From a virus: DNA of 64,000 nt. Where the stretch lies: positions 4,589 through 68,588 of IMG/VR virus record IMGVR_UViG_3300011261_000157. One strand, 5' to 3'. A model generated the notes under the pieces. That model worked only from the letters and a program-made list of their open reading frames with translations. It was not told the origin of the DNA and ran no database searches. Shown here in pieces: positions 347 through 63,649 of this stretch. Made by a program: the position numbers and the translations under genes. How positions within the stretch are numbered: position 1 is the stretch's first letter; the number at the start of each line of letters is the position of its first letter.

Positions 347-538
347 TTAAAATACTGTAAGTTGATATAGGTATCTAGGACTCTCCATACGGAGATACTC
401 TTGTCGAGAGGTGTGAGGCATCAGATAAGCGTAAATAATGGCGGGCAATGCATATCGGTAATCCATACCTGTAACAGGGTAACTTCTATGAGTATACTCT
501 ACATACTGACTAACTACTCTAAGATTTGCTTGATCCAT
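347..538 (-). CDS. xVF-terminal microprotein (...YQLTVF)
   Basis: ORF track; C-terminal LxVF. Confidence 0.7.
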   Translation of the reverse strand: MDQANLRVVSQYVEYTHRSYPVTGMDYRYALPAIIYAYLMPHTSRQEYLRMESPRYLYQLTVF

Positions 539-545
539 ATAATCC

Positions 546-734
546 CTAGAACACAGTTAAAATACCAATTCCCTTGTAGAGCCGAAGTTGACCGCCTTTT
601 CCGTCTACGTCCATAGGGGATACCATAGTATAGGACAGCGAGATCCACCACAAACAAGACTCTACCTTAAAGGGAGATATTATAATAATAACACCTTCAG
701 GGCGCTCTACGCTATCTTTAGGTGATATTCGCAT
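546..734 (-). CDS. xVF-terminal microprotein (...GILTVF)
   Basis: ORF track; C-terminal LxVF. Confidence 0.7.
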   Translation of the reverse strand: MRISPKDSVERPEGVIIIISPFKVESCLWWISLSYTMVSPMDVDGKGGQLRLYKGIGILTVF

Positions 735-791
735 ATTTAAACCTTACCCTTGACGCATAACTCAAAACCCTGCAAACGCGGGCACAAGCAC

Positions 792-820
792 AGTCTACTA
801 CAATCAATCTAGTATGTCAA
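792..820 (-). promoter_or_regulatory. sigma70-type promoter (leftward)
   Basis: TTGACA-17nt-TAGACT on minus strand. Confidence 0.65.
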
Positions 821-843
821 CTGATTTATTTACAAGCTCAAGG

Positions 844-872
844 TTGACATACCTGCTAACTTGCGGTATAGT
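844..872 (+). promoter_or_regulatory. sigma70-type promoter (rightward)
   Basis: TTGACA-17nt-TATAGT. Confidence 0.7.
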
Positions 873-920
873 GTCTCCATGTACGTGATTTACAGACTTT
901 ACGTACTTAAAGGATTGATT

Positions 921-1061
921 ATGTCTAAATTATCGTCTTACTTTATAGATCACATGGGTTATGATATTAGCCTCACTAGGGGGCATAGGGAGATGACCGT
1001 TGTCACTTCAAGTGAGATATACCACCACTACAACGGTCTTATGCTTGTGGTGGTGTTTTAA
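921..1061 (+). CDS. xVF-terminal microprotein (...MLVVVF)
   Basis: ATG at 921 after AAGGA; same frame as track ORF 861..1061. Confidence 0.7.
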   Translation: MSKLSSYFIDHMGYDISLTRGHREMTVVTSSEIYHHYNGLMLVVVF

Positions 1062-1213
1062 TGAGTAAGGTTATTTACAACCAAGCGTACCTAGGTGAAT
1101 ACGGAGCTTACCATGGAACCCTGCGTGAGAACTTTAAGGTAGAGTACACTATGAGGGCGTGGCACGACTCTATGATCACTTACCGTACCTACTTCCAAAT
1201 AGCTGTGTTTTAA
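1061..1213 (+). CDS. xVF-terminal microprotein (MSKVIYNQ...FQIAVF)
   Basis: Hand-translated, 50 aa, TAATG overlap with previous ORF. Confidence 0.7.
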   Translation: MSKVIYNQAYLGEYGAYHGTLRENFKVEYTMRAWHDSMITYRTYFQIAVF

Positions 1214-1222
1214 GGGAATTAT

Positions 1223-2053
1223 ATGACCATTGAAGTTAATCTGTATGAATTTTTGATGCGCCAGCGTCCGATATGTACTCAATTCCCCTTGACTAAGGAA
1301 TTAGGCGAAGATTTTAAGGAGCTGCGACTCAAGTATCGTGCAGAGTTGGGATTTGATCTATTTGATGGTCGCTGCGGCAATACCTTCAACTGCTTAGTTG
1401 CGGATTCATGCGTAGGTAGGCCGTTCCCTAAGGACCCTTTAGTACATAAGTACTTGGAATCATTGAATGTTACTATTACCGACGGAGTATACAAGGGAGT
1501 TGATGTCTACTTGGCCAAGCCATTACTAGACTGCTCTGAGTGTCCCTTTAAGACCGTCTGTGATGAGCCTTGTCTAACCCATAAGTCCTACTACTCAAGA
1601 CGAATCAACCCCTCTAGGGAACCTAGGGATGAGGATCTAGTAGATTATCAGCTTTGGGAGGAGGGTGTGATACGCCTTAAACAGATGTACGAGGTAGAAG
1701 AGTGCCCTCAAGGTGAGTGGCTAGATGATGAGCTGGCTTGGGATTGCTTAAGTCCTAGGCAGCGGGAATGCCTACACATGAATCTAATCCAAGAGATCAA
1801 CCACGAAGATATAGCCTACAGTTTGAATATAAGTAGGCAGGTTGTATCACAACATATATCAATTGCTACTCAAAAGATAACAGAATTCTCAAAAGCACGT
1901 AAGATATTGAAAAGACAAACTAACCCATCTCAGAGAGCCATTAAGTACTACAGATTAGGCATGACTCAGGTGGAAATAGCCGACCAAGAAGGGGTTAGTC
2001 AGCAAAGTATCTCCAACTACATCTCAAAATGGAGAAAATCCAATAATATCTAG
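1223..2053 (+). CDS. sigma-70 region-4-like/HTH transcription regulator with Cys-rich N-terminus
   Basis: LSPRQRECL...IAYSLNISRQVVSQHI and a second HTH MTQVEIADQEGVSQQSISNY; CxxC motifs. Confidence 0.65.
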   Translation: MTIEVNLYEFLMRQRPICTQFPLTKELGEDFKELRLKYRAELGFDLFDGRCGNTFNCLVADSCVGRPFPKDPLVHKYLESLNVTITDGVYKGVDVYLAKPLLDCSECPFKTVCDEPCLTHKSYYSRRINPSREPRDEDLVDYQLWEEGVIRLKQMYEVEECPQGEWLDDELAWDCLSPRQRECLHMNLIQEINHEDIAYSLNISRQVVSQHISIATQKITEFSKARKILKRQTNPSQRAIKYYRLGMTQVEIADQEGVSQQSISNYISKWRKSNNI

Positions 2054-2149
2054 TATTCATAAGTACCCGTAATCATTCGATTCCTGCATTTTATTTAAAA
2101 ATAATATTGACATGCAGGTTGTAAACAGGCTGCCTAATGTCTAATGTAT

Positions 2150-2482
2150 ATAAGCACTGGTACGAGTGTATAAGACTTAGACCGACTGCAAGGAGGGCTA
2201 AGTCGCAGGATGAGTCTCATAAGAGACGAATCCAGCCGGCTAGAAACCTCTATAACCATCAATAGTGTTCGACTAATCATTACTAAGTATAGGTTAGAAC
2301 ACACCTGCTAGCTACGAGATAGCATACGAACGAGCAGGGAAAGGTTAGAGAAGTGCAGGCGAGTGAGTATGCATGTAGAGCTTGCCATAACGCAATAAAG
2401 ATTCATATCTAAGGATCAAGGGTTCTCCTCCAACTCTACCTTAGGTTATGAGGGGTCGGGTGTAAAAGCTCGGCCCCTTCCA
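2150..2482 (+). ncRNA. putative structured non-coding RNA
   Basis: No long ORF; at least 7 complementary stems (see findings); strand and boundaries inferred. Confidence 0.4.
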
Positions 2483-2497
2483 ATATAAAGAGGACTT

Positions 2498-2650
2498 ATG
2501 ATCTACCCTAAAGGACTACCCGATAACCTTAGGGCTGAGTATGATAAGTATATGCGCGATCCGAAACGGTACGTTAAGTTATACCCAGTCATCCACAAGA
2601 TATTATCTAAATACTTAGGAGTGCCTAATGGCAAAGAAAAAGGTAAATAA
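2498..2650 (+). CDS. small hypothetical protein
   Basis: Hand-translated MIYPKGLPDNLRAEYDKY..., GAGGA RBS. Confidence 0.5.
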   Translation: MIYPKGLPDNLRAEYDKYMRDPKRYVKLYPVIHKILSKYLGVPNGKEKGK

Positions 2651-2870
2651 GGGACTTACAAATAGTTCAGACATTAAGCTTAAACAGGTTAAGAAGAAGC
2701 CTAAGCCTAAAGCGGCCAAGGTAGAGGACTTATCCCCTAAAGCCAGCAACAAAGACAGCCTGACTGACAATATCAAGTCTAGGTCTAGCAAAGCCATTAA
2801 AGGTGGTGAGCTGGGAAAGACAAGTCGAGTGCCTCTAAGTCAGAAGCTGGACATAAAAAAGAAGAAGTAA
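2628..2870 (+). CDS. Lys-rich protein; possible N-terminal part of frameshifted small terminase
   Basis: ORF track; AGGAG RBS; ends just after an in-phase A_AAA_AAG. Confidence 0.65.
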   Translation: MAKKKVNKGLTNSSDIKLKQVKKKPKPKAAKVEDLSPKASNKDSLTDNIKSRSSKAIKGGELGKTSRVPLSQKLDIKKKK

Positions 2871-3064
2871 GCCCATTCACAACGGGGCAAGCTCCTATAG
2901 CTAAGAACCTTAAGATACTTAATGATATTAAGGCTAAAGGACTTAGCAAGCAGCACGAGGCCACTCAGATAAGACACCAACTATCAGCTTATGCATCAGG
3001 TAAGTGGGATCTCACGCAGGATATCCTACTTGACATAGATGTAGCCGGTGTAATTAATGTAAGT

Positions 3065-3460
3065 ATGGGAAATCAGGCAGTTCCTTACTCTTGTCCTAAG
3101 ATGCTAGAGCTAGCAGAACAGGAGATAAGAGAAAGGTTCAAGAATGAGCCCGAGCTGATGGAAATAGTAGTCGAGGTTCTGCCGGGCGTTAAAACCCTAC
3201 AGCGCTGGATTAAGCGTCAAGACTGGAAAGAAGAAGTCGAGAAGAGACTTAAAGACGGTAATCTATTTTCAATGGATAAGAGAGCTAGAGTAATCAGTAT
3301 GGTATTTAACCGTGCAGTTAACGATCTGGACCTCAAAGCCGCAGAAACTTACTTAAAGCTATCAGGCGACCTAACCAACAAACCTCCTCAAAAGGACAAA
3401 GGTTACGAAGCTTATCAAGAACTAGCTGAATCACTAATCAAAAAGAACATAGATAAGTAA
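3065..3460 (+). CDS. putative terminase small subunit (HTH)
   Basis: Directly upstream of TerL; HTH-like VKTLQRWIK; frame stays open upstream to 2810. Confidence 0.55.
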   Translation: MGNQAVPYSCPKMLELAEQEIRERFKNEPELMEIVVEVLPGVKTLQRWIKRQDWKEEVEKRLKDGNLFSMDKRARVISMVFNRAVNDLDLKAAETYLKLSGDLTNKPPQKDKGYEAYQELAESLIKKNIDK

Positions 3461-3541
3461 TCCCCCTTAGTCCCCACAGACTGAGGTATGAGGCTCCCTT
3501 AGGGGAGCTTTTGCTATTTATATGACTGACACGGAGGTTAA

Positions 3542-5101
3542 ATGTCGGATGAATATAATCTGCCAGGGAAACCTTTGCGACTACAAGAGTTTGATTTCAT
3601 TAGCTTTACCAAAGAGCTATATGATAAGAACATCAAATTCACAGACGGTAGACGTGTCGGAGAGGTGATCATCGACGGAGTACCTCAGTTCATAGGTCTC
3701 AGTCAAGGTCAACAGGAAGTAGTAGCGAGTCAAGCCCGTTTCAAGGTCTTGGCCGCAGGTAGACGTTTCGGTAAGACTAAGATATGCGTACTGCTAGCCC
3801 TAGCTGCTATGATGATGCCTAACAGGCTCGTTATTGTGGTGGGTCCAGAACACGCTCACGTCGAGAAGGTCTTCAAAGAGCTATACTACATCATAGTAAC
3901 TCAGCTAAAGTGGGTCAACAAAGGCACCGGAGAAGGTACCATTGCTAGAAACACTAAGGGTGACTATGTAATTCAAATGAGAAACGGAAGTCGAGTAGAA
4001 GGTAAATCAGGAACGAACCCCGATTCAATCGCGGGTGACGCTGTTGACTTATATATCTTCGACGAAGCCGGTCTTGAAGATAACTTAGATGATCTATGGG
4101 GAATTGCCGAACCAGCTTTGGCCGATAACCTAGGATCAGCCATATTCATTTCTTCTCCCCGAGGCAGAAATGATTTCTATAAGTTATACAAACTAGGTCA
4201 GAAAGGCATAGGTCAGACGAAAGGGTATATACCTCTAACTGAAGCTACCGATATGACTGATTGGGCGAGTTGGAACTTCCCCTCTTACGCTAATCCATTT
4301 ATCCCTAGAAGTGAATACGAAAGGGCTAAGAGAACGGCTATAGAGAAGGGTAAGTACGAGAAGTTTAAGCGAGAATGGGATGCTGACTTTGATGCAGTAA
4401 CCGATGTGGCCTTCCCTGAGTTTAGGGCTTTCAAGAAAGAACTAGACGACAAAGGACAAGAGATCCACGCTCCTTACCACGTTCAACATTACACGTTCAA
4501 TCCCGCTAACGGCCCATGGTTCGCAGCTTGCGATTTCAACATTGCCCGTCCAGCTTCCACGGTCTACCTTCAAGTAGATCGTAACAACAACGTAATAATA
4601 TTCGATGAGTTATTCAAACCTAGCACAGACGCTAAGCTACAAGCTCAGTTCATCTTGGAAAAGCAAGAGGAATTGGAAGTCCCATACACCGCCGTAATTG
4701 GAGATGTGTCGGGAAGCTTCAATAGAGCTGGGGTAAATGAATTCACCTTGATGGAAGGAGTCTTAGGTCACGCACCTTACGCCCAACGTCAATCAAGGGA
4801 CTCAGGAAATCACCTACTGCATCAAATGTTAGCTGTACCTTACTTAGACAGTCAAGGTAAGTTGATATATGATGAGTTAGGCCAACACAAGACTTACCCC
4901 AAGTTATTCATCTCTAGTAACTGCGTAGAAACTATATATGCTTTCGAAGCAGCTAAGAAGAAGATGAGTAAGGACGGGTCGATCAAAGACGACTACGTAG
5001 AGTTCAAAACAGGCCATGAAGGTCTGTTAGATGCTGTTAGGTACGCGTTAGTGGCGATATTCAAAGAAAGACAAGGAATGCAGGTTATTAAAGGCTTATA
5101 A
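3542..5101 (+). CDS. terL: terminase large subunit
   Basis: Walker A AAGRRFGKT, Walker B YIFDEA, ISSP motif, nuclease CDFN and LLDAVRY. Confidence 0.93.
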   Translation: MSDEYNLPGKPLRLQEFDFISFTKELYDKNIKFTDGRRVGEVIIDGVPQFIGLSQGQQEVVASQARFKVLAAGRRFGKTKICVLLALAAMMMPNRLVIVVGPEHAHVEKVFKELYYIIVTQLKWVNKGTGEGTIARNTKGDYVIQMRNGSRVEGKSGTNPDSIAGDAVDLYIFDEAGLEDNLDDLWGIAEPALADNLGSAIFISSPRGRNDFYKLYKLGQKGIGQTKGYIPLTEATDMTDWASWNFPSYANPFIPRSEYERAKRTAIEKGKYEKFKREWDADFDAVTDVAFPEFRAFKKELDDKGQEIHAPYHVQHYTFNPANGPWFAACDFNIARPASTVYLQVDRNNNVIIFDELFKPSTDAKLQAQFILEKQEELEVPYTAVIGDVSGSFNRAGVNEFTLMEGVLGHAPYAQRQSRDSGNHLLHQMLAVPYLDSQGKLIYDELGQHKTYPKLFISSNCVETIYAFEAAKKKMSKDGSIKDDYVEFKTGHEGLLDAVRYALVAIFKERQGMQVIKGL

Positions 5102-5102
5102 C

Positions 5103-5342
5103 ATGAAAAGACCAACTGTAATAGTTAGAAAGGGAGATAGATTCGTTCTAGACTCCAAGAAGCTATATCCACATTTAAGAAAGCATGAAGATATGGTTAG
5201 ATCGGCTTTACAGATGGCATGTTTACACTATAAAGCCTATCCTCAACTGTACAAACATCTAGACCCCAAAGATCAATTAGACAAGGTGAATGATATGTTC
5301 TATCAGTTGCTAATCGACTGGGGCGTCTATAAGGGAAAATAA
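5103..5342 (+). CDS. hypothetical protein
   Basis: ORF track; operonic spacing. Confidence 0.6.
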   Translation: MKRPTVIVRKGDRFVLDSKKLYPHLRKHEDMVRSALQMACLHYKAYPQLYKHLDPKDQLDKVNDMFYQLLIDWGVYKGK

Positions 5343-5614
5343 TGGCTAAGAAAGAGAAAGGTCAGAAGCTAAAGTACTTCTTAGACCACCCGCAGATCAA
5401 AAGACACGAGTCGCCAGGCAACGGAAACGCGCCAGGCTCTCTAGCTGAGAAGATCAACTGGGGCGGTAAAAATACCCCTGAACAGAACGCAGCTATCAAA
5501 ACACAACAACCTAAACAGCCGGCTCAGCCCTCATCATCTAGTAGTACTAGTAGCTCAAGTAGCTCTAGCTCAGGTGGGGTTATGTCAGCCATAAAGGGTT
5601 TATTTAAGAAATAA
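5342..5614 (+). CDS. small basic Ser-rich protein
   Basis: ORF track; poly-Ser tract. Confidence 0.6.
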   Translation: MAKKEKGQKLKYFLDHPQIKRHESPGNGNAPGSLAEKINWGGKNTPEQNAAIKTQQPKQPAQPSSSSSTSSSSSSSSGGVMSAIKGLFKK

Positions 5615-5623
5615 GGAGACATA

Positions 5624-6124
5624 ATGTCACTAAGTTCAATACTTAAGAAGCTCGCTGGCATTAAGGCTAAGGTACAGACCGGCTCTAAATACGATAAGCT
5701 AAACCTAGCTGATGACGTAAGAGCTAGATCACCATTAGCTAAGCAAGTGGTTGATAGAACGGCTAGAATCTTCATAAAAGAAGCCCTAGGCGAAGATGAG
5801 ACTGTAGCCCCCGAAGATTTCGACACCAACCAGAAAGCAACACTAGCTATCCAAGAGTTAGTATTCACATCAGTAGAAGCTCACCCTTCAGCTAACAAGA
5901 TTTCAATTGAGATCATCGCTGATTCGGCTGAGTCTATTGTAGTTTCAGGTAAGAGTATCAAGATTCACATCGACGATGGCGTGTCTGATTCAGACGCAGT
6001 AAAAGCTCTGGTTGATGGAGATGATCAAGTATCAGCAATGGTAACAGTAGAAGTTAACGCTGGTCAAGGCGCTACTATAGTTACGGCTGAAGCTAAGGCT
6101 AAGATGAGCGGAGCCTTAGGTTAA
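5624..6124 (+). CDS. hypothetical, possibly virion protein
   Basis: ORF track; AAGGAG RBS. Confidence 0.65.
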   Translation: MSLSSILKKLAGIKAKVQTGSKYDKLNLADDVRARSPLAKQVVDRTARIFIKEALGEDETVAPEDFDTNQKATLAIQELVFTSVEAHPSANKISIEIIADSAESIVVSGKSIKIHIDDGVSDSDAVKALVDGDDQVSAMVTVEVNAGQGATIVTAEAKAKMSGALG

Positions 6125-6179
6125 TCAATAATATAAACCTGCCTTATGGCAAGGTATTGTATATACAAACGGAGAACAT

Positions 6180-6338
6180 ATGGAAAAGAAACTAAAGAAA
6201 ATCCCTGGCGGCTTAAAGTCTCAGGGTATGCGTAATGCTAAGTGGGATAAGTTAGAAAAACAATCTAATGAATCTGCTGAGAAAGCCCCTCATGACCAAA
6301 TGAACGGTGGCGAAGCTAAGAAAATTAGCAAGAAGTAA
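6180..6338 (+). CDS. small Lys-rich protein
   Basis: Hand-translated MEKKLKKIPGGLKSQGMR..., GGAG RBS. Confidence 0.55.
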   Translation: MEKKLKKIPGGLKSQGMRNAKWDKLEKQSNESAEKAPHDQMNGGEAKKISKK

Positions 6339-6414
6339 GATAACGGGCGAGCCGAGGTAAAACTCGGCAAGCCTTTATTACTCGTAATGTGAAGTATAAA
6401 ACGGAGGAGTAACC

Positions 6415-8337
6415 ATGGCATTCAATTTAGGAGTAGGTAGGACAGGTCAGTCCGCTGCTTTCGCCATGCAGGTAAATTACCTATATGAATCTGTGGTTTA
6501 CCGTAGATGGGTAGTGGATCTAGCTTTATCATTCTATGAAGGCCGTATGGACGAGTTCGTATGGTTGGACTTACAGAAGCAATTCAGAGATCCTAGTAAG
6601 CAACAAATTATACCCTACGCACTAACTCAAGAGATCATAGATGAAACCTCCATCTTATATAGGGAGGAACCTGTCTACATGATTAAAGACAAGAAGACAG
6701 GCAAAGTACTCAAGAAAGATCAAGAGTTGTGGAGAAAGATAAGAAAAGACGCTAGATACCATAATATGTGTCAAGAACTGGACGCTATGACCAAACTGCT
6801 AGGGACTGTCCTAGTTAAGGTCAATTTCGTAGATCCAGACACAGGTGACTTAGTAAATGCTAATAAGCCAGGCATGGTCAATTTTGAACTAGTATATGGC
6901 GGGTCTTACGACGTTAAATACGCAGCGAGCCCCTACTACATCAGTTCTATTGAATTAGGAATGGTAGAAGCACCTTCAGCATGGGGTCTAGGTGGACCTT
7001 CAGTAGCTGGAGCCGTGCCTCTAGATCATAATCTAAGCGTTGCAATGCGTTCTAAATCAGGGATGAAGTACTCAAAGGTACAGTCCGTAAAAGACTTAGA
7101 CAACGCAAATATAAATAAAGTATACTGGGGAGTAGACGGACATAAAGTGCAAGATGCCGACGGTAATTACTACGAAGGGGATAACCCTTACGGATGTATA
7201 CCAGCGGTTCCTTTCTTTAACCGTGACCCCGGCAATAAATTCTTCTTACCAGTAAACGAGCCTCTACTTTACGCTAATCACGCTGTGAATATGAGACTCT
7301 CAGACTTGAACCACGTTGCTAAGTTCCAATCATTCGGACAAGCGGTGGTTAAAGGGATCGAACGTCCAATCAACAACAGATTGGGAAGACCTATAGACGA
7401 CTTCAACGCTAGAGGTGGTAGTCGAGGTACAGGCTTCGGGTTCGGCAACACAGGTCCTACTGGACTAGATAGAAACAGTTTCTCTCCTTTCGAGTTCTAC
7501 GGCGATGGTAATGCTACCGCTAATATGAACGGATTCAGCTTGGGCCCAGACACGCTACTGAGCGTAGGTGAGACGGGAGACTTCAAGTTTGAAAAGCCAG
7601 GCGCTGATATCCAAGGTCTTACTAGTACCATTTATACAATGATGGACATGGTAAGGATTAACCACGGATTACAACCTAAGCATAATAGCAAGTTACCTCC
7701 TTCAGGAGCGGCTTTATTATCAGCTAAGTTGGGCGTAGTTGAGCAGAATAAGAGAAGACAGATTCTATTTAGAGAAAGAGAGCAGCAGTTATTCGAGGTA
7801 GTTAAGAAGCTCTGGAACGCTCACCATAACGGTGAAGGTGCCGAGATGTTCTCAGAAGACGCTGAATTGGAAATACATTACGTAGATCCAGAATTCGCGG
7901 TAGACCCTCAAACTAGAGCTGCTACAATCAAATTAGAATTAGATATCCTACTTACAGGTAATGTAGACTCAGTACAGAAGATGTACCCTCACTTAGATGA
8001 GATCGCAGCTAAAGAGCTATTAGCGAAAGCCCATAGGGAGCGCATAGATCAGGCACAGCGAGACGCTGAGGTAGAAGGTGCTAAGCTGACTAAGCTCAAA
8101 GACTTAGGGTTTGAAGTTGAAAGTGATAAAGAGGTTAAAACCCGAGCATCACAATCAGATGTGAATCCTAATCAAGGTAATAAGGCCAAGTCTGACGACG
8201 GACCTAAACCTAAGATTAGTAATCGAGCTAAACACGCGGAGCAGAGTTCTATACAACCGAATAAGAATGGTGATGTAAGAAAATCAGATAAGACAAAACG
8301 TGCCGAAGAGCAGAAGCGGAAAGAGTCCGGCTTCTAG
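6415..8337 (+). CDS. portal protein
   Basis: 640 aa between TerL and scaffold/MCP; NPYGCIPAVPF and SGAAL motifs resemble SPP1-type portals. Confidence 0.8.
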   Translation: MAFNLGVGRTGQSAAFAMQVNYLYESVVYRRWVVDLALSFYEGRMDEFVWLDLQKQFRDPSKQQIIPYALTQEIIDETSILYREEPVYMIKDKKTGKVLKKDQELWRKIRKDARYHNMCQELDAMTKLLGTVLVKVNFVDPDTGDLVNANKPGMVNFELVYGGSYDVKYAASPYYISSIELGMVEAPSAWGLGGPSVAGAVPLDHNLSVAMRSKSGMKYSKVQSVKDLDNANINKVYWGVDGHKVQDADGNYYEGDNPYGCIPAVPFFNRDPGNKFFLPVNEPLLYANHAVNMRLSDLNHVAKFQSFGQAVVKGIERPINNRLGRPIDDFNARGGSRGTGFGFGNTGPTGLDRNSFSPFEFYGDGNATANMNGFSLGPDTLLSVGETGDFKFEKPGADIQGLTSTIYTMMDMVRINHGLQPKHNSKLPPSGAALLSAKLGVVEQNKRRQILFREREQQLFEVVKKLWNAHHNGEGAEMFSEDAELEIHYVDPEFAVDPQTRAATIKLELDILLTGNVDSVQKMYPHLDEIAAKELLAKAHRERIDQAQRDAEVEGAKLTKLKDLGFEVESDKEVKTRASQSDVNPNQGNKAKSDDGPKPKISNRAKHAEQSSIQPNKNGDVRKSDKTKRAEEQKRKESGF

Positions 8338-8346
8338 GGAGGACAA

Positions 8347-8673
8347 GTGGCATCAAGTTTAATTCACAAAGTTATAATATACCGTGTAGACGGTAATGAT
8401 ATCGAAATGCTAGTATCAGACGATATTAAACAAGCAGAAAACATGTATAAGGGATTAGATCACGAATGGTTAACTTCGACGGCTGAGAAGAGACCATTTA
8501 GATTGCCGGAACCCAAGATGCATAGTTTTGCTCCTTCGTTAATATCTGAGATAGTAGTACAATCGATATCTAGAGAGGAGTATGAAAAGCAGAGTAATCC
8601 CTACTGGAACCAAATGAGCAAAGAGGGACTCGGCGGGTCAATGAATCGCAATTTCAACAACGGTGGATTTTAA
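8347..8673 (+). CDS. hypothetical protein
   Basis: ORF track; GGAGG RBS. Confidence 0.65.
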   Translation: MASSLIHKVIIYRVDGNDIEMLVSDDIKQAENMYKGLDHEWLTSTAEKRPFRLPEPKMHSFAPSLISEIVVQSISREEYEKQSNPYWNQMSKEGLGGSMNRNFNNGGF

Positions 8674-8726
8674 GGTAGAGCCTGAAGTCCCAACGATCAA
8701 TTTCGGTAGAGCCGAAGGAGACACAG

Positions 8727-9578: not shown

Positions 9579-9601
9579 TCAGGTAAATTTAAGGAGATAA
9601 A

Positions 9602-54224: not shown

Positions 54225-54295
54225 TAGGCTATTTATTACTTGACTTACCACTTAAAATAATGTAAAGTAGATAGACAACCTTAAAGCAGTCTAAC

Positions 54296-54470: not shown

Positions 54471-54489
54471 AAGATTAGGAGGACTGTGT

Positions 54490-54645: not shown

Positions 54646-54653
54646 AGGAATAT

Positions 54654-55081: not shown

Positions 55082-55092
55082 GGGAGTTGAAT

Positions 55093-55263: not shown

Positions 55264-55274
55264 GGAGATTTAGT

Positions 55275-55418
55275 ATGCAATGGAAAGTTGTCTACTACGT
55301 AGAAAAAACAGAGACGGTGACCTGCCTTCGAGACACTCACCTGCTTGGGATTATCCTTAAGAGGGGCATTAGTCGTATGGGAGACTTTAGGAATAGGGTC
55401 TCCCTAGCTGTATTTTAG
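55275..55418 (+). CDS. xVF-terminal microprotein (MQWKVVYY...VSLAVF)
   Basis: Hand-translated, 47 aa, AAGGAG RBS. Confidence 0.7.
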   Translation: MQWKVVYYVEKTETVTCLRDTHLLGIILKRGISRMGDFRNRVSLAVF

Positions 55419-55423
55419 GTAAT

Positions 55424-55448
55424 AAAAAACCCGCTCAAGGCGGGCTTA
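55424..55448. terminator. terminator between convergent units (T tract on minus strand)
   Basis: AAAAAA-CCCGC-TCAAG-GCGGG. Confidence 0.65.
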
Positions 55449-55626
55449 ATGGAGTCTGAATGTACGCTGGAAGAATCTGGTTATATGGGGTGATGAGGCA
55501 CTCTTCAAGCTCAGTTCGCAGGGCTAATATAACTTACTTACCTTGGAAGTATACTCCGCCTTCTAATCTACTAAAATCTAAGCAGGACTTAAGTAAGTAT
55601 AGCAACTTAGAATACATAGCCATATT

Positions 55627-57348: not shown

Positions 57349-58313
57349 TATGAGTCTCCGAATAGGTTGTCGATATTGAAATTAACCTTGGAATATTCAA
57401 CTACTCTTGAGCTGAAGAAGTCAGTGTTAGAGATACCGCCGGATACATTATCAAACCAGCTCATCCTGTCTAAGGCTGCTTGGTCGATATTCTTCCAGTT
57501 GGACTTGAGGCCGATCTCTCTAAGTTTAGAGTTAGCTCGCTCTCTGATGTATTGCTTAAGGTCTTTAGGGTCTAACCCTCTAACTACGCCGAGGCTGAAG
57601 CATTGATCAATGAAATTATCTTCCAGTTGAACGGAAAGCCTGGCAGCGTCATAAATGCTCTTCTTAAGATCTTTAGTAAGTAACTTAGGGTTCTCGCTGA
57701 TCAAGGTATTGAATAGCCAACACCCTGCTTGAGAGTGGAGCTGCTCATCTCTGATACTCCACGCTACGATATTCTTGACGCCCATAAGTAAGTTATAACG
57801 AGATAGTCCCGTTAAGATTGCGAATGAACTGAACAGGTTCACACCCTCAGTGAAGGCGCTAAACACAGCTAGTGAACAGGCTATGTCGGCCTTAGAATTG
57901 CCCCTAACAGCTTTCAAAGCATCTAACTTAGCTAGGGCGCTAGGGTCTTGGAGGAAGGCACTGTAATTATCAAGCCCCAAAGTATCATTTAAGTAAGCAT
58001 AGCCCACTTGATGAATTGACTCCATAGAGGCAAATGCACTACACATCAGTTGTATCTCAGGCTTGGGGAACCATTTGCTCACTCGTGTGGCCCAATACTC
58101 GTTAACATATATTTCAGTTTGAGTGAACGACTTAAGCACATTACCTAGTACTAACTTCTCACTCTCAGTCAACTCACTGTCCCAGTCTTGTAGGTCTTTC
58201 GACATAGATACCTCTGAGGGTAGCCAGTGGTTGTTTTGTTGTTTTTCCCAGAACTCGAAAGCTCTGTCATATTCAAAAGGCTTATATACATCACGTTGCG
58301 ATGTTAGGCTCAA
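57348..58313 (-). CDS. nrdB: ribonucleotide reductase class Ia beta subunit
   Basis: YKPFEY, WLPSEV...D..DW, MESIHQVGY, EGVNLFSSF, RDEQLH, DFF; TTG start after AAGGAG (track start 58382). Confidence 0.93.
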   Translation of the reverse strand: MSLTSQRDVYKPFEYDRAFEFWEKQQNNHWLPSEVSMSKDLQDWDSELTESEKLVLGNVLKSFTQTEIYVNEYWATRVSKWFPKPEIQLMCSAFASMESIHQVGYAYLNDTLGLDNYSAFLQDPSALAKLDALKAVRGNSKADIACSLAVFSAFTEGVNLFSSFAILTGLSRYNLLMGVKNIVAWSIRDEQLHSQAGCWLFNTLISENPKLLTKDLKKSIYDAARLSVQLEDNFIDQCFSLGVVRGLDPKDLKQYIRERANSKLREIGLKSNWKNIDQAALDRMSWFDNVSGGISNTDFFSSRVVEYSKVNFNIDNLFGDS

Positions 58314-58350
58314 ATCGAACTCCTTGATTGAATGTTTATTAATTGGGAGC

Positions 58351-58977
58351 TTACTTACCGCTCCAGTGGAAACCTTTCTCATCGACTCTCAGGACTTCAA
58401 AGCGAACGCGCCCTTCATCGATGTTCTTCTTGATTCTATTCTGTTTAGGTGTAAGCTTAGCCTCTCCGGTCTTGACTTCCACGAATACTACTTCATCTTC
58501 TTCAAAGCAGATTAAGTCGATAGGCTGGAGTAAGGACTTGGTTTCTTTACGATTGTATTTGAACTCGTCATTGAAGAACACGAACTGCTCACCTATCTGA
58601 CCCATTTTAACTCTGTTACTTATCTGCTTACCTCTAGACTCTTCAAACTTAACTGTCACTTCATCTAATTGAGTTCGTAACTCTGCCATCTGAGTAGTTA
58701 GCTCACTCACTTTATCGGCGTGTACTTGCTTAGGGATTGAATTCTCAGGAGTAATCGTCGAGGCTCTGATTGTTTCTAGTTTGGCTTTTACGATGGCCAG
58801 CTCATGTTCAGCCGCTAGGTGATCGTTGAGGTCGCGCTCATGATCCTCAATCGTCTTATCTAAGAGGAGCGCTAGTTGATTAGCTTCTTCTCTTAGTCTT
58901 ACTTTATCTGTATAAGTTTTATATAAATAGAATACCAAGGCTAGGATAGCCAAAGCTACTGAGAAGACCACTTCCAT
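58351..58977 (-). CDS. Holliday junction resolvase-like PD-(D/E)xK endonuclease with N-terminal TM and coiled coil
   Basis: GQIGEQF, PIDLICF, VFVEVKTG..KLT..Q. Confidence 0.8.
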   Translation of the reverse strand: MEVVFSVALAILALVFYLYKTYTDKVRLREEANQLALLLDKTIEDHERDLNDHLAAEHELAIVKAKLETIRASTITPENSIPKQVHADKVSELTTQMAELRTQLDEVTVKFEESRGKQISNRVKMGQIGEQFVFFNDEFKYNRKETKSLLQPIDLICFEEDEVVFVEVKTGEAKLTPKQNRIKKNIDEGRVRFEVLRVDEKGFHWSGK

Positions 58978-58998: not shown

Positions 58999-59163
58999 TT
59001 AGAATATTACTAGGGATACGAACTCGGAATGAGGAGAGTTAAGAGCAGTAGGTGATTCGTAGATCCAATACTCAGCCGCATACTTGCAACTGTTATACCC
59101 TATGTCCCAGCCGCCAGTACACACTTGAAAATAAGTTAAGGCGTAATCAGAGCCAGCTCTCAT
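58999..59163 (-). CDS. xVF-family variant (MRAGSDYA...VSLVIF)
   Basis: Hand-translated, 54 aa. Confidence 0.65.
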   Translation of the reverse strand: MRAGSDYALTYFQVCTGGWDIGYNSCKYAAEYWIYESPTALNSPHSEFVSLVIF

Positions 59164-59298
59164 CTACAGTACCACAATGGAATAACAGTCGGAGTATAGG
59201 GATATGTTATCTTGCGGCCACCAAAACTGAAGTAACCTAGATGGATCTCCAGAGTCAAGCTGAATAGGTCTATATGAAACTTCATACAAGACTATCAT
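59164..59298 (-). CDS. xVF-family variant (MIVLYEVS...YSIVVL)
   Basis: Hand-translated, 44 aa; coupled to next ORF. Confidence 0.5.
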   Translation of the reverse strand: MIVLYEVSYRPIQLDSGDPSRLLQFWWPQDNISLYSDCYSIVVL

Positions 59299-59314
59299 GT
59301 ATCGCAAGGTTGAA

Positions 59315-59671
59315 TTATCTGTTAACACGGCTAACCCCAAACATAATCAATACAGATAACCCAACGCCGTATAAGAAACCCTGAGTAAGGTCATTGTCCT
59401 TGGAGTGGGCGGCTTTAGATTGCTGATTCGCCTGCGCCTTCCAACTATCTCGATCATCAGTAATAGACTTAAGCTGTAGGTCTTTAAGCTCTATTTGCTG
59501 CTTACGCAGCTCACCGTCTCGTAAGTCTTTACGGATATGAGATTCGGTATCATCATTAAAGAAGTAACCCGTACAAGGAGCTTTAGTGCCCACTTGCATA
59601 CGTAAGTAGTTAGGGCAGGCCTGAACTACGGGTAAGGTCATAATAACGATTAAGGCAACTAAAACACGCAT
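59315..59671 (-). CDS. signal-peptide, coiled-coil and C-terminal TM protein (possibly spanin-like)
   Basis: Hydrophobic N- and C-termini. Confidence 0.55.
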   Translation of the reverse strand: MRVLVALIVIMTLPVVQACPNYLRMQVGTKAPCTGYFFNDDTESHIRKDLRDGELRKQQIELKDLQLKSITDDRDSWKAQANQQSKAAHSKDNDLTQGFLYGVGLSVLIMFGVSRVNR

Positions 59672-59802
59672 AAATTAACTCCTGAATCCCTGAGGATCAG
59701 TTCATCTTTAAGATCAAAGTCAACCAATCCCGTAGGACCCATCCAGCAGGTCAGCATTATTATAGTTCCGTAACTAGAATAAGGACGTAGATTAATCATC
59801 AT
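59659..59802 (-). CDS. xVF-terminal microprotein (MMINLRPY...VNLCVF)
   Basis: Hand-translated, 47 aa. Confidence 0.65.
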   Translation of the reverse strand: MMINLRPYSSYGTIIMLTCWMGPTGLVDFDLKDELILRDSGVNLCVF

Positions 59803-59988
59803 CTAAAACACCTGTAAAGTTACATGGTAAGAATTAATGGAGATAGTAGGGGCCTCTATCTTACACATATTAAAGTACACCCAAGGGACTCTACCTGCCG
59901 AGGTAATCAACTCCACCGTATACCCTGAGAGGGCGACTACGCACTGCCTTCGGTAATTAATAGCTATGTCGCCAACATCAAACATCAA
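59803..59988 (-). CDS. xVF-terminal microprotein (...VTLQVF)
   Basis: ORF track. Confidence 0.7.
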   Translation of the reverse strand: MMFDVGDIAINYRRQCVVALSGYTVELITSAGRVPWVYFNMCKIEAPTISINSYHVTLQVF

Positions 59989-60179
59989 AACACCACCAAT
60001 TTAAGACTGTCATACTCAAGAGGTTCCACTATAAAGCCCTGCTCTAATTTAGTATAGAACCATGAATCGGTTACAAAGTTAGCGTACCAAGAAGAACTGA
60101 TATCGAAATCACAGTCAACCCACACATGGTAAGCTTGGTGGTTTACTTCTTCTTTTTCTTCTCGCTGTACTCTGTCCAA
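59985..60179 (-). CDS. xVF-terminal microprotein (...LKLVVF), start uncertain
   Basis: ORF track. Confidence 0.6.
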   Translation of the reverse strand: MDRVQREEKEEVNHQAYHVWVDCDFDISSSWYANFVTDSWFYTKLEQGFIVEPLEYDSLKLVVF

Positions 60180-61126: not shown

Positions 61127-61276
61127 TTAAAATACAGTAATTAGTAAGGCTTCGGGGTCAGAGTGGACATCTGAAGATGAATCCGAAACTCTAAGTATAT
61201 AGGATGGCCTCATATCCTTCTCACCTAGATAATCAGAATACTTCCAGCTACGTAGAAAGTAAACTATATGAAACAT
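61127..61276 (-). CDS. xVF-terminal microprotein (MFHIVYFL...LLITVF)
   Basis: Hand-translated, 49 aa. Confidence 0.7.
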   Translation of the reverse strand: MFHIVYFLRSWKYSDYLGEKDMRPSYILRVSDSSSDVHSDPEALLITVF

Positions 61277-61438
61277 CTAAAACACCACTAGAGCAAAGTC
61301 TTCCTGAAACCTCTGAGTAAGACCAGAAGTCCCTATAGACATCGTATGATTTATAGCTCTAGAGTAGAAGTAATTGACCTCCTGACACCATAACTCAACA
61401 GTCCACATGCATATATTATCATCTAATGCACTAGTCAT
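61277..61438 (-). CDS. xVF-terminal microprotein (MTSALDDN...FALVVF)
   Basis: Frame of track ORF 61277..61459. Confidence 0.7.
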   Translation of the reverse strand: MTSALDDNICMWTVELWCQEVNYFYSRAINHTMSIGTSGLTQRFQEDFALVVF

Positions 61439-61940
61439 TCTTAAGCCTCTGTATATCATCTCTCAGTAGCTTCAATTTAGCCTGTAGCTCCTTCATTTCA
61501 GCTAAGTGAGTAGGGTCACTAGGGTTTAAGCTAGAAGCTCTTAAACAGGCTGTCATAGCCTTACGTACAGACTTCACTTCTTGCTCTAGCGCGTATATGG
61601 GAGCCTTCTTAACTACTAGCTTAACTAAGTCATCTTCAGTTTTCAAAGTAGGACTATTGAGTAGTTTCTCTTGCGCCCTCAATTCAGCTAGTTTCTCGCT
61701 ATTGCTTTTAACGCGAGGTACTATGCCTATTAGGTTTTCATGTTTAGTTCGATCCTCAGGGCTTAGACTCCGTAGGTACTCATTGATGCGTTTTACGCCT
61801 CGGTAGAGTTTGGAGTTCTGTCTCTGCTGGATCTTCTGAGGGATTGATAATAAATCTACGACTACTTCATCGTCCCAACTTTCAATCAAGGTGTAGTACC
61901 AGAGCTTGATCTTTAATATAAGAGATTTGATAAATCGCAT
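61431..61940 (-). CDS. hypothetical protein
   Basis: ORF track; AAGGA RBS. Confidence 0.65.
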   Translation of the reverse strand: MRFIKSLILKIKLWYYTLIESWDDEVVVDLLSIPQKIQQRQNSKLYRGVKRINEYLRSLSPEDRTKHENLIGIVPRVKSNSEKLAELRAQEKLLNSPTLKTEDDLVKLVVKKAPIYALEQEVKSVRKAMTACLRASSLNPSDPTHLAEMKELQAKLKLLRDDIQRLKND

Positions 61941-61948
61941 ATGTTTCC

Positions 61949-62101
61949 TTAAAATACAGTTAAAGTATGTAGAGGGTTAATAGCTGAGAAGCCCCCTCGA
62001 TACTTAAGTCCACTTAACCAATAGTAAGCCCAACTTGCCTTCATCCAACCGGAGTGCTCAAGCCCCCTTCGATTAAAAATGAAACCTTGTAGCTCATTCA
62101 T
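61949..62101 (-). CDS. xVF-terminal microprotein (MNELQGFI...HTLTVF)
   Basis: Hand-translated, 50 aa. Confidence 0.7.
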   Translation of the reverse strand: MNELQGFIFNRRGLEHSGWMKASWAYYWLSGLKYRGGFSAINPLHTLTVF

Positions 62102-62275
62102 CTAAAACACCACTAGGGTATTAACAGAAGCCCATCTATTAGACCCTCTGGAGTTTAAGCACTTACGATGGAAGTCTACCAAGACTGCGTACCCTTGTAT
62201 ATACGGACTCCACCTATAGGGGTATGTTTTATTCGCGGTAGAACTATTAATCTCTAATATATAGTTAAAAACCAT
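62102..62275 (-). CDS. xVF-terminal microprotein (MVFNYILE...NTLVVF)
   Basis: Hand-translated, 57 aa. Confidence 0.7.
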   Translation of the reverse strand: MVFNYILEINSSTANKTYPYRWSPYIQGYAVLVDFHRKCLNSRGSNRWASVNTLVVF

Positions 62276-62437
62276 CTAAAACACCAATAAGCTGTGATAG
62301 TGTACATCAGCTTGGATGCGGTCATTTGAGAAACGCTTAAATTCGTACATAGTTTGCTGCCAGCTTCCATACCCTTGAAGATGAGTCATCACTATCAAAG
62401 CATTAAATAGAGGGCTCCCCTTAGCTGAATACGTCAT
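62276..62437 (-). CDS. xVF-terminal microprotein (MTYSAKGS...HSLLVF)
   Basis: Hand-translated, 53 aa. Confidence 0.7.
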   Translation of the reverse strand: MTYSAKGSPLFNALIVMTHLQGYGSWQQTMYEFKRFSNDRIQADVHYHSLLVF

Positions 62438-62614
62438 CTAAAACACCACCAATAGTACAAGCTCAGAGTGCATACTCTCCACGTATGTGCGACCTCTACA
62501 GAGGTAGGCGTGATTAGCTAGGGAGTCCCATAGTGTGTCTCCGTCTTCATGGTAATTTAATAAAGCATTGAAATCATTTATGTCTATTAGGTATTTAATT
62601 GTTCGATCACCCAT
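62438..62614 (-). CDS. xVF-terminal microprotein (MGDRTIKY...VLLVVF)
   Basis: Ends and frame checked by hand, 58 aa. Confidence 0.7.
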   Translation of the reverse strand: MGDRTIKYLIDINDFNALLNYHEDGDTLWDSLANHAYLCRGRTYVESMHSELVLLVVF

Positions 62615-62790
62615 TAAAACACCGCCAGTACGTGAAACTCATCTTCATAGACTATAGATCGATGACCTCTACCTTCTGGTAGCCGTATAAAATCACCCAT
62701 ACACCAATTACTCTCAACTGAGGCATACCCGCTAGCGTCCTTGAAGATACTTAACGGAATATAAGCTGTACACTGTATAGTACGGATCAT
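62614..62790 (-). CDS. xVF-terminal microprotein (MIRTIQCT...HVLAVF)
   Basis: Ends and frame checked by hand, 58 aa. Confidence 0.7.
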   Translation of the reverse strand: MIRTIQCTAYIPLSIFKDASGYASVESNWCMGDFIRLPEGRGHRSIVYEDEFHVLAVF

Positions 62791-63048
62791 CTAAATCAAC
62801 CCCGCTATAACATCAGCTATAACTACAGCGCCAGTACATACGCTTACAATCAAGCTCAATAGAACTACCCTAAGTAGTCCTTCTTGCGTGTTTGATAGTG
62901 ATACGTTGAATCTCTCTGAAGCTGTCTCATCGCCTTTATCATATAGATCTAGATCTACTTGCTGGCTCTCATTAAGCGTAAAGCCGAATACAAAAGCCGA
63001 CACAACCATGATAGCAAGGGACACAAGTGTAACATCGTGTAAATTCAT
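62791..63048 (-). CDS. two-TM membrane protein
   Basis: ORF track; two hydrophobic segments. Confidence 0.6.
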   Translation of the reverse strand: MNLHDVTLVSLAIMVVSAFVFGFTLNESQQVDLDLYDKGDETASERFNVSLSNTQEGLLRVVLLSLIVSVCTGAVVIADVIAGLI

Positions 63049-63146
63049 AATTACCTCAGTAAGTAGTCAACAACAGTAGCAATCAGCCAGGCGGTGCCGA
63101 AGATGATCAATACGGACTTAAGTAAATGTCGGATTCTAAACCACAT

Positions 63147-63296
63147 CTAAAACACTCCTAGTGAGTAGCCCCAATCATAGGCGAACATCCTGTAGCGGTC
63201 TTTAGACCTCCACATATAGGCTGCATTGGGATTAGACCAGTAACAGTGGCTGAAACTATCCCTATCAACTACTAGTACAGAGATCCGATCATCCAT
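63147..63296 (-). CDS. xVF-terminal microprotein (MDDRISVL...YSLGVF)
   Basis: Ends and frame checked by hand, 49 aa. Confidence 0.7.
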   Translation of the reverse strand: MDDRISVLVVDRDSFSHCYWSNPNAAYMWRSKDRYRMFAYDWGYSLGVF

Positions 63297-63458
63297 CTAA
63301 AACACCGTCAAGTTATGCAAGTCAGAGGAGACTCGGGTGTAGATACCTTCTAACCCTTGGTACCTTCTGTGGTACATTAGGCTATAGCTCTTTCTAATCT
63401 TCCACTTTACAGATAGTAAATGCACGTAGTATAGTCTCTCAGGGAAAACGGAATACAT
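63297..63458 (-). CDS. xVF-terminal microprotein (MYSVFPER...HNLTVF)
   Basis: Ends and frame checked by hand, 53 aa. Confidence 0.7.
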   Translation of the reverse strand: MYSVFPERLYYVHLLSVKWKIRKSYSLMYHRRYQGLEGIYTRVSSDLHNLTVF

Positions 63459-63649
63459 CAAAACACCGCCAGTTGACTACGATGAACCCAGAAACTAGCT
63501 CCGTAAGAGGATAGACTACCTAGCCGGTAGGGAATTTCCAAATTGGCTGCCCACCCCTCTAAAGTAAACTCACCGGAAAACTCAATGGGGCTCCTACATA
63601 GCTTAGGTAACCTAACATACTGACTCACCATACACCCTCCACTTACCAT
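63458..63649 (-). CDS. xVF-terminal microprotein (...SQLAVF)
   Basis: Frame of track ORF 63458..63712; start chosen after end of upstream gene. Confidence 0.65.
   Translation of the reverse strand: MVSGGCMVSQYVRLPKLCRSPIEFSGEFTLEGWAANLEIPYRLGSLSSYGASFWVHRSQLAVF

Follow-up and report, generated by a model that had tools for sequence, protein, structure and literature searches.

The closest described counterparts of the genes reported here are short signals at a free C-terminus, among them the degrons of AAA+ proteases: ssrA tags have the common ending LAA (PMC9382460, in part), and the C-terminal tripeptide LPF, carried by SsbA of Streptococcus mutans, suffices for degradation by ClpXP, with recognition that depends on the strain (PMC5143411, in part). 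In the 64,000-nt stretch of viral DNA analyzed here (bases 4589-68588 of the 68,588-nt record IMGVR_UViG_3300011261_000157, classed by IMG/VR as a linear viral contig; hereafter the window, to which coordinates refer unless another record is named), about 60 genes for microproteins end in the residues [L/I/V]-x-V-F directly before the stop codon, and open reading frames (ORFs) with this tail are called VF ORFs below. The tail resembles the AAA+ degrons in being a free, non-polar C-terminal tri- or tetrapeptide. It differs from them in that it is encoded on about 60 unrelated phage proteins, is neither added by tmRNA nor restricted to a single substrate, reads L-x-V-F, and has a role in degradation that is predicted.

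A likeness to encapsulin cargo peptides is also apparent, as a short terminal peptide is common to otherwise unrelated proteins and the phage has an HK97-type head protein; the conserved part, however, comprises 4-6 residues and not about 10, the genes lie outside the head module, the best host-type promoters precede them, and binding to a shell would be a prediction. Comparable cases of capsid loading are the capsid-targeting sequences of the T4 internal proteins and the Dar proteins of P1. Genome-wide C-terminal signals served by one dedicated machine are represented by LPXTG/sortase, PEP-CTERM/exosortase and the C-terminal domain (CTD) of the type IX secretion system (T9SS), in which lineage variants of the signal are paired with their own machine. 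As in those systems, dozens of unrelated proteins per genome carry one C-terminal signal, but sortase-type signals are longer and belong to exported cellular proteins with a signal peptide, whereas the microproteins lack an export signal and no sorting enzyme was found for them. Small early phage proteins that occupy proteases, some as competing substrates, include lambda CIII for FtsH and T4 PinA and T7 Gp4.5 for Lon; those are single genes of defined sequence, whereas the present class has 60 members and no homology to them by Pfam, PHROGs or PDB. The binding motif of the sliding clamp is of the Q-L-x-L-F type, from which the tail departs in having Gln at -5 in only 6/60 members and Val in place of Leu at -2, and the V-L-W-I ending of a related record (G001, see below) does not fit it.

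In their layout the genes recall hyperplastic regions, PeSL (promoter early stem-loop) cassettes and morons, all of which place small ORFans between core genes, some with a promoter or stem-loop of their own, and replace them quickly. PeSL cassettes reportedly mediate the shuffling of small ORFs in T4-type phages. The common element of those cassettes is regulatory DNA and their ORFs are unrelated, whereas here it is a protein tail together with the composition of the bodies. No PeSL-like or integron-like motif bounding each ORF was found, the common bases being the stop and the first two positions of three codons, and a DNA pattern of two copies, searched against viral contigs, gave 3 matches with 0-1 VF-ending ORFs each. 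A literature search of full texts returned no description of such a class or layout, and in a term search of the phage small-protein review PMC11323111 the words "C-terminal", "C-terminus", "hypervariable" and "packaged" were absent. An earlier note on this DNA, made by inspection of its letters, named no described system of this layout as known to its author, and the literature searched agrees with it. The class appears to be previously undescribed and new in kind, although what reads the tail could prove to be machinery of a familiar sort.

Tail-bearing microprotein genes

Within the window, 64 stop-to-stop frames end in [LIV]xVF, 4 of which (4-15 aa) are attributed to chance. The remaining 60 span 42-94 codons from stop to stop, or 35-84 aa from the first start codon, and are distributed over 22 arrays; four variants of the tail (LVIF twice, LACF and IVVL) occur in addition. 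These numbers reproduce the 60 ORFs and 4 variants counted by hand in the earlier note, and the array coordinates agree. Across the whole contig, 64 ORFs of 35-95 aa carry the tail, whereas 100 mononucleotide shuffles, a null that preserves only base composition, averaged 0.64 with at most 3, so that the enrichment for which the note had proposed a shuffled control was indeed found. The end dipeptide VF closes 64 of the 614 stop-to-stop frames of at least 35 aa in the contig, the runner-up (SL) closing 11. In a gene model of the contig (141 ORFs obtained by a simple longest-ORF script rather than a trained gene finder), VF ends were present in 60 of 102 genes of at most 100 aa (56 of the 60 inside the window) and in none of the 39 larger ones (Fisher p = 3e-12), in agreement with the previous observation that no large core gene ends this way. 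The other small proteins of the phage tend toward end dipeptides that contain Lys (KK, GK, KE). The VF class takes up about 15% of the DNA and about 45% of the genes of the contig, an investment too large to be incidental. By position, the arrays and the elements associated with them are the following.

347-734, minus: array of 2 VF ORFs (347-538 and 546-734)
792-872: two divergent promoters of sigma-70-like type (820-792 on the minus strand, 10/12; 844-872 on the plus strand, 11/12), each of which would serve a flanking VF array
879-1213, plus: array of 2 VF ORFs, in an operon that runs on into the sigma-like factor gene 1223-2053
19299-19630, plus: array of 2 VF ORFs between tail-tube paralogues
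20275-21099, plus: array of 5 VF ORFs, with a sigma-70-like promoter of 12/12 consensus inside it at 20318-20345
21993-22417, plus: array of 2 VF ORFs
25223-25363, plus: lone VF ORF
26138-26429, plus: array of 2 VF ORFs
28319-28501, plus: LACF variant, whose orthologues in related records G003 and G002 end in LTCF
28492-29493, plus: array of 6 VF ORFs, including the tandem paralogues 28990-29145 and 29146-29307 (43% identity)
30245-30433, plus: lone VF ORF
30709-30855, plus: lone VF ORF
31249-31692, plus: array of 2 VF ORFs
35974-36300, plus: array of 2 VF ORFs with two large baseplate-region genes either side
44892-44948, plus: sigma-70-like promoter (11/12, TG) followed by a 12-bp stem-loop and T-run, 22 nt before a VF array
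44970-45426, plus: array of 3 VF ORFs ahead of an M15-type endolysin gene
45866-46227, plus: array of 2 VF ORFs; subfamily A4, with paralogues at 62438-62614 and 58999-59163
46677-46874, plus: lone VF ORF
47165-47467, plus: array of 2 VF ORFs
52393-53321, minus: operon of tail-bearing ORFs only, 5 VF ORFs and an LVIF variant (52986-53141), with a terminator at 52259-52243
54240-55447, plus: free-standing operon with a promoter-like site (54240-54268), one small ORF, 6 VF ORFs (54490-55418) and a terminator (55427-55447)
58999-59340, minus: two variants, LVIF (58999-59163) and IVVL (about 59164-59340)
59659-60179, minus: array of 3 VF ORFs
61127-61459, minus: array of 2 VF ORFs
61949-62790, minus: array of 5 VF ORFs
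63147-63712, minus: array of 3 VF ORFs

The head module (1223-19299) contains no VF genes in the contig gene model. Past the terminator of the operon at 54240-55447, a Tyr-rich frame of 56 aa (55460-55630, plus strand) ends in ...YIAIF and overlaps the 3' end of a ribonucleotide reductase (RNR) gene on the opposite strand; this frame is perhaps a member in decay, or a spurious one.

By their coding signals, the VF ORFs appear to be genuine genes. When codon usage is modeled on the large genes, the open frame has the top score in 58/60; the start codon is ATG in 58/60, and a Shine-Dalgarno (SD)-like site lies upstream in 50/60. Leu, Ile or Val at -4, Val at -2 and Phe at -1 are found in all 60, Tyr, His or Leu is frequent at -6, and position -3 is occupied by Ala (18 of 60), Val (17), Thr (9), Gly (7), Gln (6) or Cys (2). 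As described earlier, the codons of the tail vary synonymously, with Val encoded by GTG (35), GTA (23) and GTT (2), Phe by TTT (50) and TTC (10), and all three stop codons in use. The invariant bases are positions 1-2 of the Leu, Val and Phe codons, Leu itself being encoded by both TTR and CTN, and the information around the stop is 3-periodic, with 0.58-1.33 bits at third positions versus 1.9-2.2 at positions 1 and 2.

The codons also shift with the position of the next start. Where that start abuts the stop (n = 32), 29 of the x codons end in G and 24 of the Val codons are GTG, and the DNA of the tail reads an SD-like GGTG six bases ahead of the ATG; where it does not abut (n = 28), the x codon ends in G in 2 cases and Val is GTA, the usual codon in this genome, in 18. 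As L-x-V-F remains unchanged across both start contexts despite the codon shift, it is the amino acids that appear to be selected, with the DNA secondarily used for coupling. Both the pattern at codon positions 1-2 and the comparison of start-codon contexts thus uphold the protein-level constraint proposed before, and conservation extends beyond a fixed nucleotide motif, because the residues are kept with differing codons.

Two other readings of the stop region were considered and rejected. A +1 frameshift or stop read-through at U-UUU-UAR is contradicted by downstream frames that misfit, by the use of three stop codons and by large genes that are intact under code 11, and an alternative genetic code fails on the same grounds. 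A separate, unexplained detail is that the terminal Phe codon is TTT in 49-50/60, against the preference of the large genes for TTC (TTC 386, TTT 145). The VF bodies use TTT 61 times versus 48 for TTC, and a terminal TTT gives a run of four T before the stop in every context.

Composition sets the bodies apart as well. With the tail removed, they contain 10.0% Tyr, 2.5% Trp and 3.3% His, about three times the level of the large proteins, and are low in Ala, Gln and Lys; the median fraction of Tyr, Trp and His is 0.163, versus 0.087 in the other 42 small ORFs, which are Lys-rich (p = 3e-9). The idea that the excess of Tyr was left behind by the repair of stop codons was discarded, because the other one-step neighbors of stop codons (Gln, Lys, Glu) are depleted and not enriched. 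Beyond the tail, the members have only a weak Y...W pattern in common. When the 102 small ORFs (60 with VF ends and 42 without) were compared by BLASTP, only 11 pairs reached E<0.01, a result that together with the aromatic enrichment bears out the hypervariable, aromatic-rich bodies described in the earlier note. A profile hidden Markov model (HMM) built from 56 members gives those same members 12-32 bits only, an example of how searching by terminal motif, and not by homology, can expose gene classes that profile methods miss.

In the contig gene model, all 60 VF ORFs lack the long uncharged or hydrophobic stretch that a signal peptide or membrane span would require, and no conserved N-terminus or leader was seen among the members. 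Pfam and PADLOC matched 0/56 members, PHROGs matched 2/56 weakly (E 0.004-0.006) to families of unknown function, and a PDB profile search gave 0 matches at E<=1. The clustering and structure prediction that had been suggested for the class delivered a few paralogue groups, whereas the models obtained were of low confidence: AlphaFold2 on the 56-member alignment (A1) reached a predicted local distance difference test score (pLDDT) of 58 with five strands, one of them placed on the tail, and on subfamily A4 a pLDDT of 51 with two helices. A homodimer prediction for member 28990-29142 with A1 scored 0.01 and gave no answer, and the best ESM Atlas score with member 19299-19448 (0.79) was under the usable level. 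Word-index searches yielded 2 candidates for the latter member and, for A1, a single match to itself, and the A4 HMM, run against 1.84 billion representatives, recovered only its own members, the near-variant P0060 and one unrelated repeat protein. The VF microproteins are a distinct class, predicted to be soluble, of about 50 aa and with two apparently independent traits, the tail and the composition.

Promoters were predicted as matches to the sigma-70 consensus. Each of the 4 sigma-70-like sites in the window that score at least 11/12 (844-872; 20318-20345, 12/12; 44892-44920; 45697-45726) is followed by a VF gene at a distance of 7-172 nt. A perfect TTGACA -35 element is listed for 8 sites, and 7 of these have a VF gene at most 190 nt downstream. 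This distribution suggests early expression by the host polymerase. Two arrays resemble free-standing operons with a terminator at the end of each (52393-53321, minus; 54240-55447, plus), and such operons of tail-bearing genes alone argue against translated spacers that tune the coupling of structural genes. The composite of promoter and stem-loop at 44892-44948 recalls the PeSL cassettes of T4-type phages.

Related records and turnover of the arrays

Homologues of the sheath protein were found in metagenome protein sets (54, with 40-83% identity, some on contigs of about 110 kb), and three related records were read as DNA: G003 (31.9 kb), G002 (15.1 kb) and G001 (49.6 kb), the present contig being G000. 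Large genes are syntenic between the window and these records, and sheath identity to the window is 85-86% for the C-termini of G003 and G002 and 58% for G001. The search in related phages advised in the earlier note thus found the class in three further records, with tails that are specific to the lineage.

G000: tail [LIV]-x-V-F; 60/102 small genes end in VF; 0/39 large genes
G003 and G002: tail L-x-[V/I/L]-[L/F]; 20/24 small ORFs in G003; 0/23 large
G001: tail mostly [V/I]-L-W-[I/L] or V-L-F-F; 16 ORFs

The tails of G003 are a mix of VL, IL, VF and IF. The same composition recurs in all three lineages, Tyr amounting to 12.2% of the tail ORFs in G003 and 9.9% in G001, and the same intergenic slots of the tail and baseplate modules are filled in the two relatives with comparable modules, with 0 to 7 copies per slot among three genomes. 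Orthologues of 19299-19451 (LAVF) are G003 3030-3191, which ends in LTLF, and P0057 (78% identity, LAVF), and subfamily A4 ends in VVF in this phage and in AIF or TIF in G003. At more distant loci (sheath 31-49% identical), 1-10 small ORFs per locus were found with 0-3 hydrophobic tails, a frequency not above that of the large genes of those loci, and therefore the class appears confined to one sub-clade. A baseplate alignment (A3) searched against viral contigs returned the same three records and no others, and a sheath alignment (A2) searched against metagenome contigs returned 16 loci, none close and long enough to show arrays.

For only 3 of the small tail ORFs of G000 was an orthologue detected in G003 (reciprocal best hits gave 2, BLASTP clustering the third), although the flanking genes of the two records are 35-86% identical. 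Arrays of G002 and G003 are identical or replaced, and other arrays are 3-61% identical or wholly replaced. Mismatch-free array tracts of G002 and G003 lie at G003 2833-3207, 3740-4180 and 5306 to at least 5900, and a further identical tract, from 7727 to at least 9300, consists mainly of large genes. The tract at 2833-3207 fits one array to within about 20 nt, with the neighboring large genes differing at 5-7% of sites, and suggests recent exchange of arrays between co-occurring strains. As G002 and G003 come from the same metagenome, they demonstrate mosaic exchange and do not count as two independent lineages.

In the alignable G002/G003 pairs that differ, omega (the ratio of non-synonymous to synonymous rates) is 0.12-0.18 in four and 0.57 and 0.69 in the two most diverged. 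A near-identical strain, detected in one public DNA run, provided short contigs over parts of five or six arrays at a depth of 2-3. In the 6 VF ORFs scored, this variant has 10 synonymous and 16 non-synonymous changes with V and F intact, and its indels are one 3-nt deletion, which keeps the frame, and one 1-nt deletion at a stop/start junction. At window position 54933 it has one base fewer in TTTTAAATG, by which an abutting TAAATG becomes an overlapping TAATG with both ORFs intact (depth about 3). Tandem paralogues and paralogues in distant arrays indicate that copies do spread within the genome. On this comparative evidence, the bodies are individually constrained in the short term, yet the genes appear to be gained, lost, duplicated and swapped quickly.

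Possible readers of the tail

We favor, with a probability of roughly 0.35, an explanation in which the genes form a moron-like repertoire of accessory microproteins with a common C-terminal recognition tag, most likely of degron type, that would be read by a cytoplasmic AAA+ protease or its adaptor. The genes would behave like morons, i.e., accessory genes inserted with a promoter of their own, because strong sigma-70-like promoters directly precede many of them and two arrays have the look of operons in their own right. From a free C-terminal tail constrained at the protein level, carried by unrelated soluble microproteins and shifting in concert between lineages, we infer most simply a short linear recognition motif for one common partner. 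The reader would be a protease of the ClpXP, ClpAP, FtsH or Lon type, or an adaptor; with the tail acting as a degron each microprotein would be short-lived, and about 60-100 tagged species made together would compete with host substrates for the protease. A saturation or decoy role is plausible. Tagged proteins are said to queue and compete with one another for ClpXP. Non-polar residues at the extreme free C-terminus, the feature of such degrons, are present in 60/60, and the relatives are hydrophobic at -4, -2 and -1. In 1,582 bacterial genomes, C-termini are depleted of hydrophobic and aromatic residues, which reduce protein levels, for the most part via degradation (PMC7246954, in part). 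The LPF and ssrA cases cited above also count in favor of a degron, as do the Lys-containing ends toward which the other small proteins of this phage tend.

Several points weigh against this explanation. Scans of the mid-size genes with Pfam and PHROGs revealed no protease, adaptor or other reader in a contig that is 59% complete. The association of promoters with VF genes is modest (p = 0.01-0.03 by our own estimate, the base rate being about 0.43). A protease could be blocked by a single decoy or a few, which leaves 60 differing and constrained bodies unexplained, and the strict V-F in 60/64 copies is more specific than a generic non-polar-tail degron needs. Structure prediction returned models of low confidence (pLDDT 58 and 51), and the microproteins may or may not fold.

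If the tail is a recognition tag, it would provide a transferable four-residue handle on the stability, localization or partner binding of phage microproteins, and a natural case of many proteins tracking one reader through evolution. As it recognizes members without sequence homology, the tag would also be a direct way into the "dark matter" of phage ORFans, and among the bodies there may be a stock of small proteins that bind or inhibit host functions.

The main alternative, somewhat less probable than a degron, is a tag that docks or sorts the microproteins to a non-protease partner, either a phage receptor or a host hub, with the variable bodies acting as effectors. On the phage side the partner could be the inside of the capsid, part of the tail or baseplate, or some enzyme with the microproteins as interchangeable specificity subunits, and on the host side a hub with a hydrophobic pocket, such as the sliding clamp or the proteins that bind the SSB tail. 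Co-evolution with one receptor predicts the joint movement of the tail consensus across paralogues between lineages that was found, V and F are strict though I or L is one nucleotide away, and many arrays lie among tail and baseplate genes, with individual bodies under the purifying selection expected of effectors. A precedent exists in encapsulin cargo, which is loaded into an HK97-fold shell via a short C-terminal peptide and an inner hydrophobic pocket (PMC7355545, in part), but the conserved part of the tail is shorter than such peptides (4-6 residues vs about 10), the tail occurs on 0/39 large proteins, and the head module at 1223-19299 is devoid of VF genes. Moreover, the best sigma-70-like promoters precede VF genes and two arrays lie in the early-looking region around RNR, which points to early and not late expression; loading into the virion, a role offered in the earlier note, is weakened by the same positions (4/4 best sigma-70-like sites and 7/8 TTGACA sites). 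Docking to the clamp is disfavored by the scarcity of the Gln at -5 that its motif needs (6/60), and Pfam and PHROGs scans of the 68.6 kb revealed no candidate receptor. The periplasmic and outer-membrane readers that the note had named (DegS, Tsp/Prc, BamA) are unlikely, with a signal-peptide-like segment in 0/60 members and small residues (A/V/T/G) at -3 instead of an aromatic one: of the Y-x-F signal of the outer-membrane protein (OMP)/DegS type, the terminal F is present and the aromatic at -3 is absent, the hydrophobic positions being -6, -4, -2 and -1. A bolder proposal, to which we give a low probability, is a quickly exchanged library of about 60-100 Tyr/Trp-rich binders, each for a different host protein (e.g., a defense or stress factor), that a lineage-tuned tail would plug into one machine. 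In its boldest form the microproteins would be adaptors that bring targets to an AAA+ protease, much as F-box proteins or PROTACs do but encoded by a phage, and in another they would be delivered jointly as ready-made effectors; co-evolution of tail and reader would then explain the concerted shift of the tail between lineages.

The remaining explanations fare less well. That the tail, with no external reader, is the last core beta-strand, or an oligomerization strand, of one fast-evolving fold, and that its lineage-specific consensus stems from birth-and-death evolution with duplicates of a few founders refilling the arrays of each genome, is unlikely, even though hydrophobic residues alternate at -6, -4 and -2, the low-confidence AlphaFold2 model of the 56-member alignment puts a strand on the tail, paralogues occur both in tandem and in distant arrays with 0 to 7 copies per slot in three genomes, and G003 tolerates a mix of VL, IL, VF and IF. 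The rest of the protein is not conserved (11 BLASTP pairs at E<0.01; 12-32 bits for the HMM on its own members), and the tail combines randomized synonymous sites with invariant V and F, so that no core position in the bodies is under selection nearly as strong. Nor is there a sign of one shared fold, A4 being modeled as helical, and orthologues in the same slot have switched tail with the genome (LAVF to LTLF; VVF to AIF/TIF in A4). It is highly improbable that the motif is a by-product of nucleotide signals, whether for translational coupling, termination context or microhomology between PeSL-like cassettes. Such signals would account for the 32/60 abutting starts with GGTG six bases before the ATG, for TTT as the terminal Phe codon in 49-50/60 against the TTC preference of large genes, for the L-W codons of G001 that often hold the ATG of the next gene, and for the promoter and stem-loop at 44892-44948, with the PeSL-mediated shuffling of small ORFs as a precedent. 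The 28 non-abutting cases, however, keep the residues with other codons, even in an operon-final gene right before its terminator, third positions are low in information with Leu alternating between TTR and CTN, and the composition of the bodies co-occurs with the tail beyond the reach of any junction signal. Precursors or scaffolds resembling ribosomally synthesized and post-translationally modified peptides (RiPPs), with a C-terminus modified or processed by one promiscuous enzyme, are equally hard to credit. Many RiPP precursors can be served by one enzyme, and the combination of many variable, aromatic-rich small peptides with one short invariant element would suit them, but no radical-SAM, P450, ATP-grasp, cyclodehydratase or peptidase partner was found among the genes scanned in a contig that is 59% complete, and neither a conserved leader nor export signal peptides were detected. 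The least credible proposal is that the frames are untranslated, as non-coding spacers, RNA genes or an assembly artefact. The unusual amino-acid composition and the low-confidence structure models would agree with it; against it stand 60 open frames of at least 42 codons where 0.64 are expected, their start codons (ATG) and SD-like sites, the omega values of less than 1 for pairs that align, the preservation of the frames in three related records and a strain variant, and the lack of Rfam matches at gathering thresholds.

The phage record and other genes of the window

The contig is estimated by CheckV to be 59% complete, about 41% of the genome being unseen. The main genes recognized in the window are as follows.

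1223-2053: sigma-like factor gene (PHROGs E about 1e-9), third in an operon opened by two VF genes
3542-5101: large terminase
6415-8337: portal
9602-10981: major head protein, HK97-type (phrog_212)
15358-17979: tail sheath
22471-24327: tape measure
31705-35973: baseplate wedge protein
42815-44887: tail fibre
55627-58382, minus: class I RNR, both subunits

The set of terminase, portal, head, sheath, tape-measure and baseplate genes therefore identifies a contractile-tailed phage, and Pfam and PHROGs scans revealed that an M15-type endolysin and a Holliday-junction-resolvase-like nuclease are also encoded. A megablast search of 8 kb against phages gave no match, there is no close cultured relative, no phage record exceeds about 29.5% identity to the head protein, and the terminase protein has no relatives among viral contigs. 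No tRNA genes and no Rfam families at gathering thresholds were found in the window. A search of genome contigs retrieved three contigs of metagenome-assembled genomes with a sheath identity of 44-48%, labeled as three different taxa, which gives no usable clue to the host, and a search of public sequencing runs listed no RNA run and one DNA run (share 0.05).

Three consecutive tail-tube-like paralogues (17994-18524, 18598-19299 and 19671-20300), whose products start with MARS or MART..DP, are kept in G001-G003, and the VF arrays of the tail module begin directly after the second (18598-19299). The ORF of the baseplate hub, listed at 21015-21854, overlaps the VF ORF at 20947-21099; its start is probably near 21113, at an ATG with a GGAGG site from which the N-terminus agrees with that of the G003 orthologue (MS.FTLPNG). 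Between the sheath gene and the first tube gene, G003 (814-1548, L022) and the matching place of G002 contain an ORF of 244-359 aa that is absent from the window. The two copies are 46% identical, and their sequence looks like that of a GIY-YIG-type homing endonuclease.

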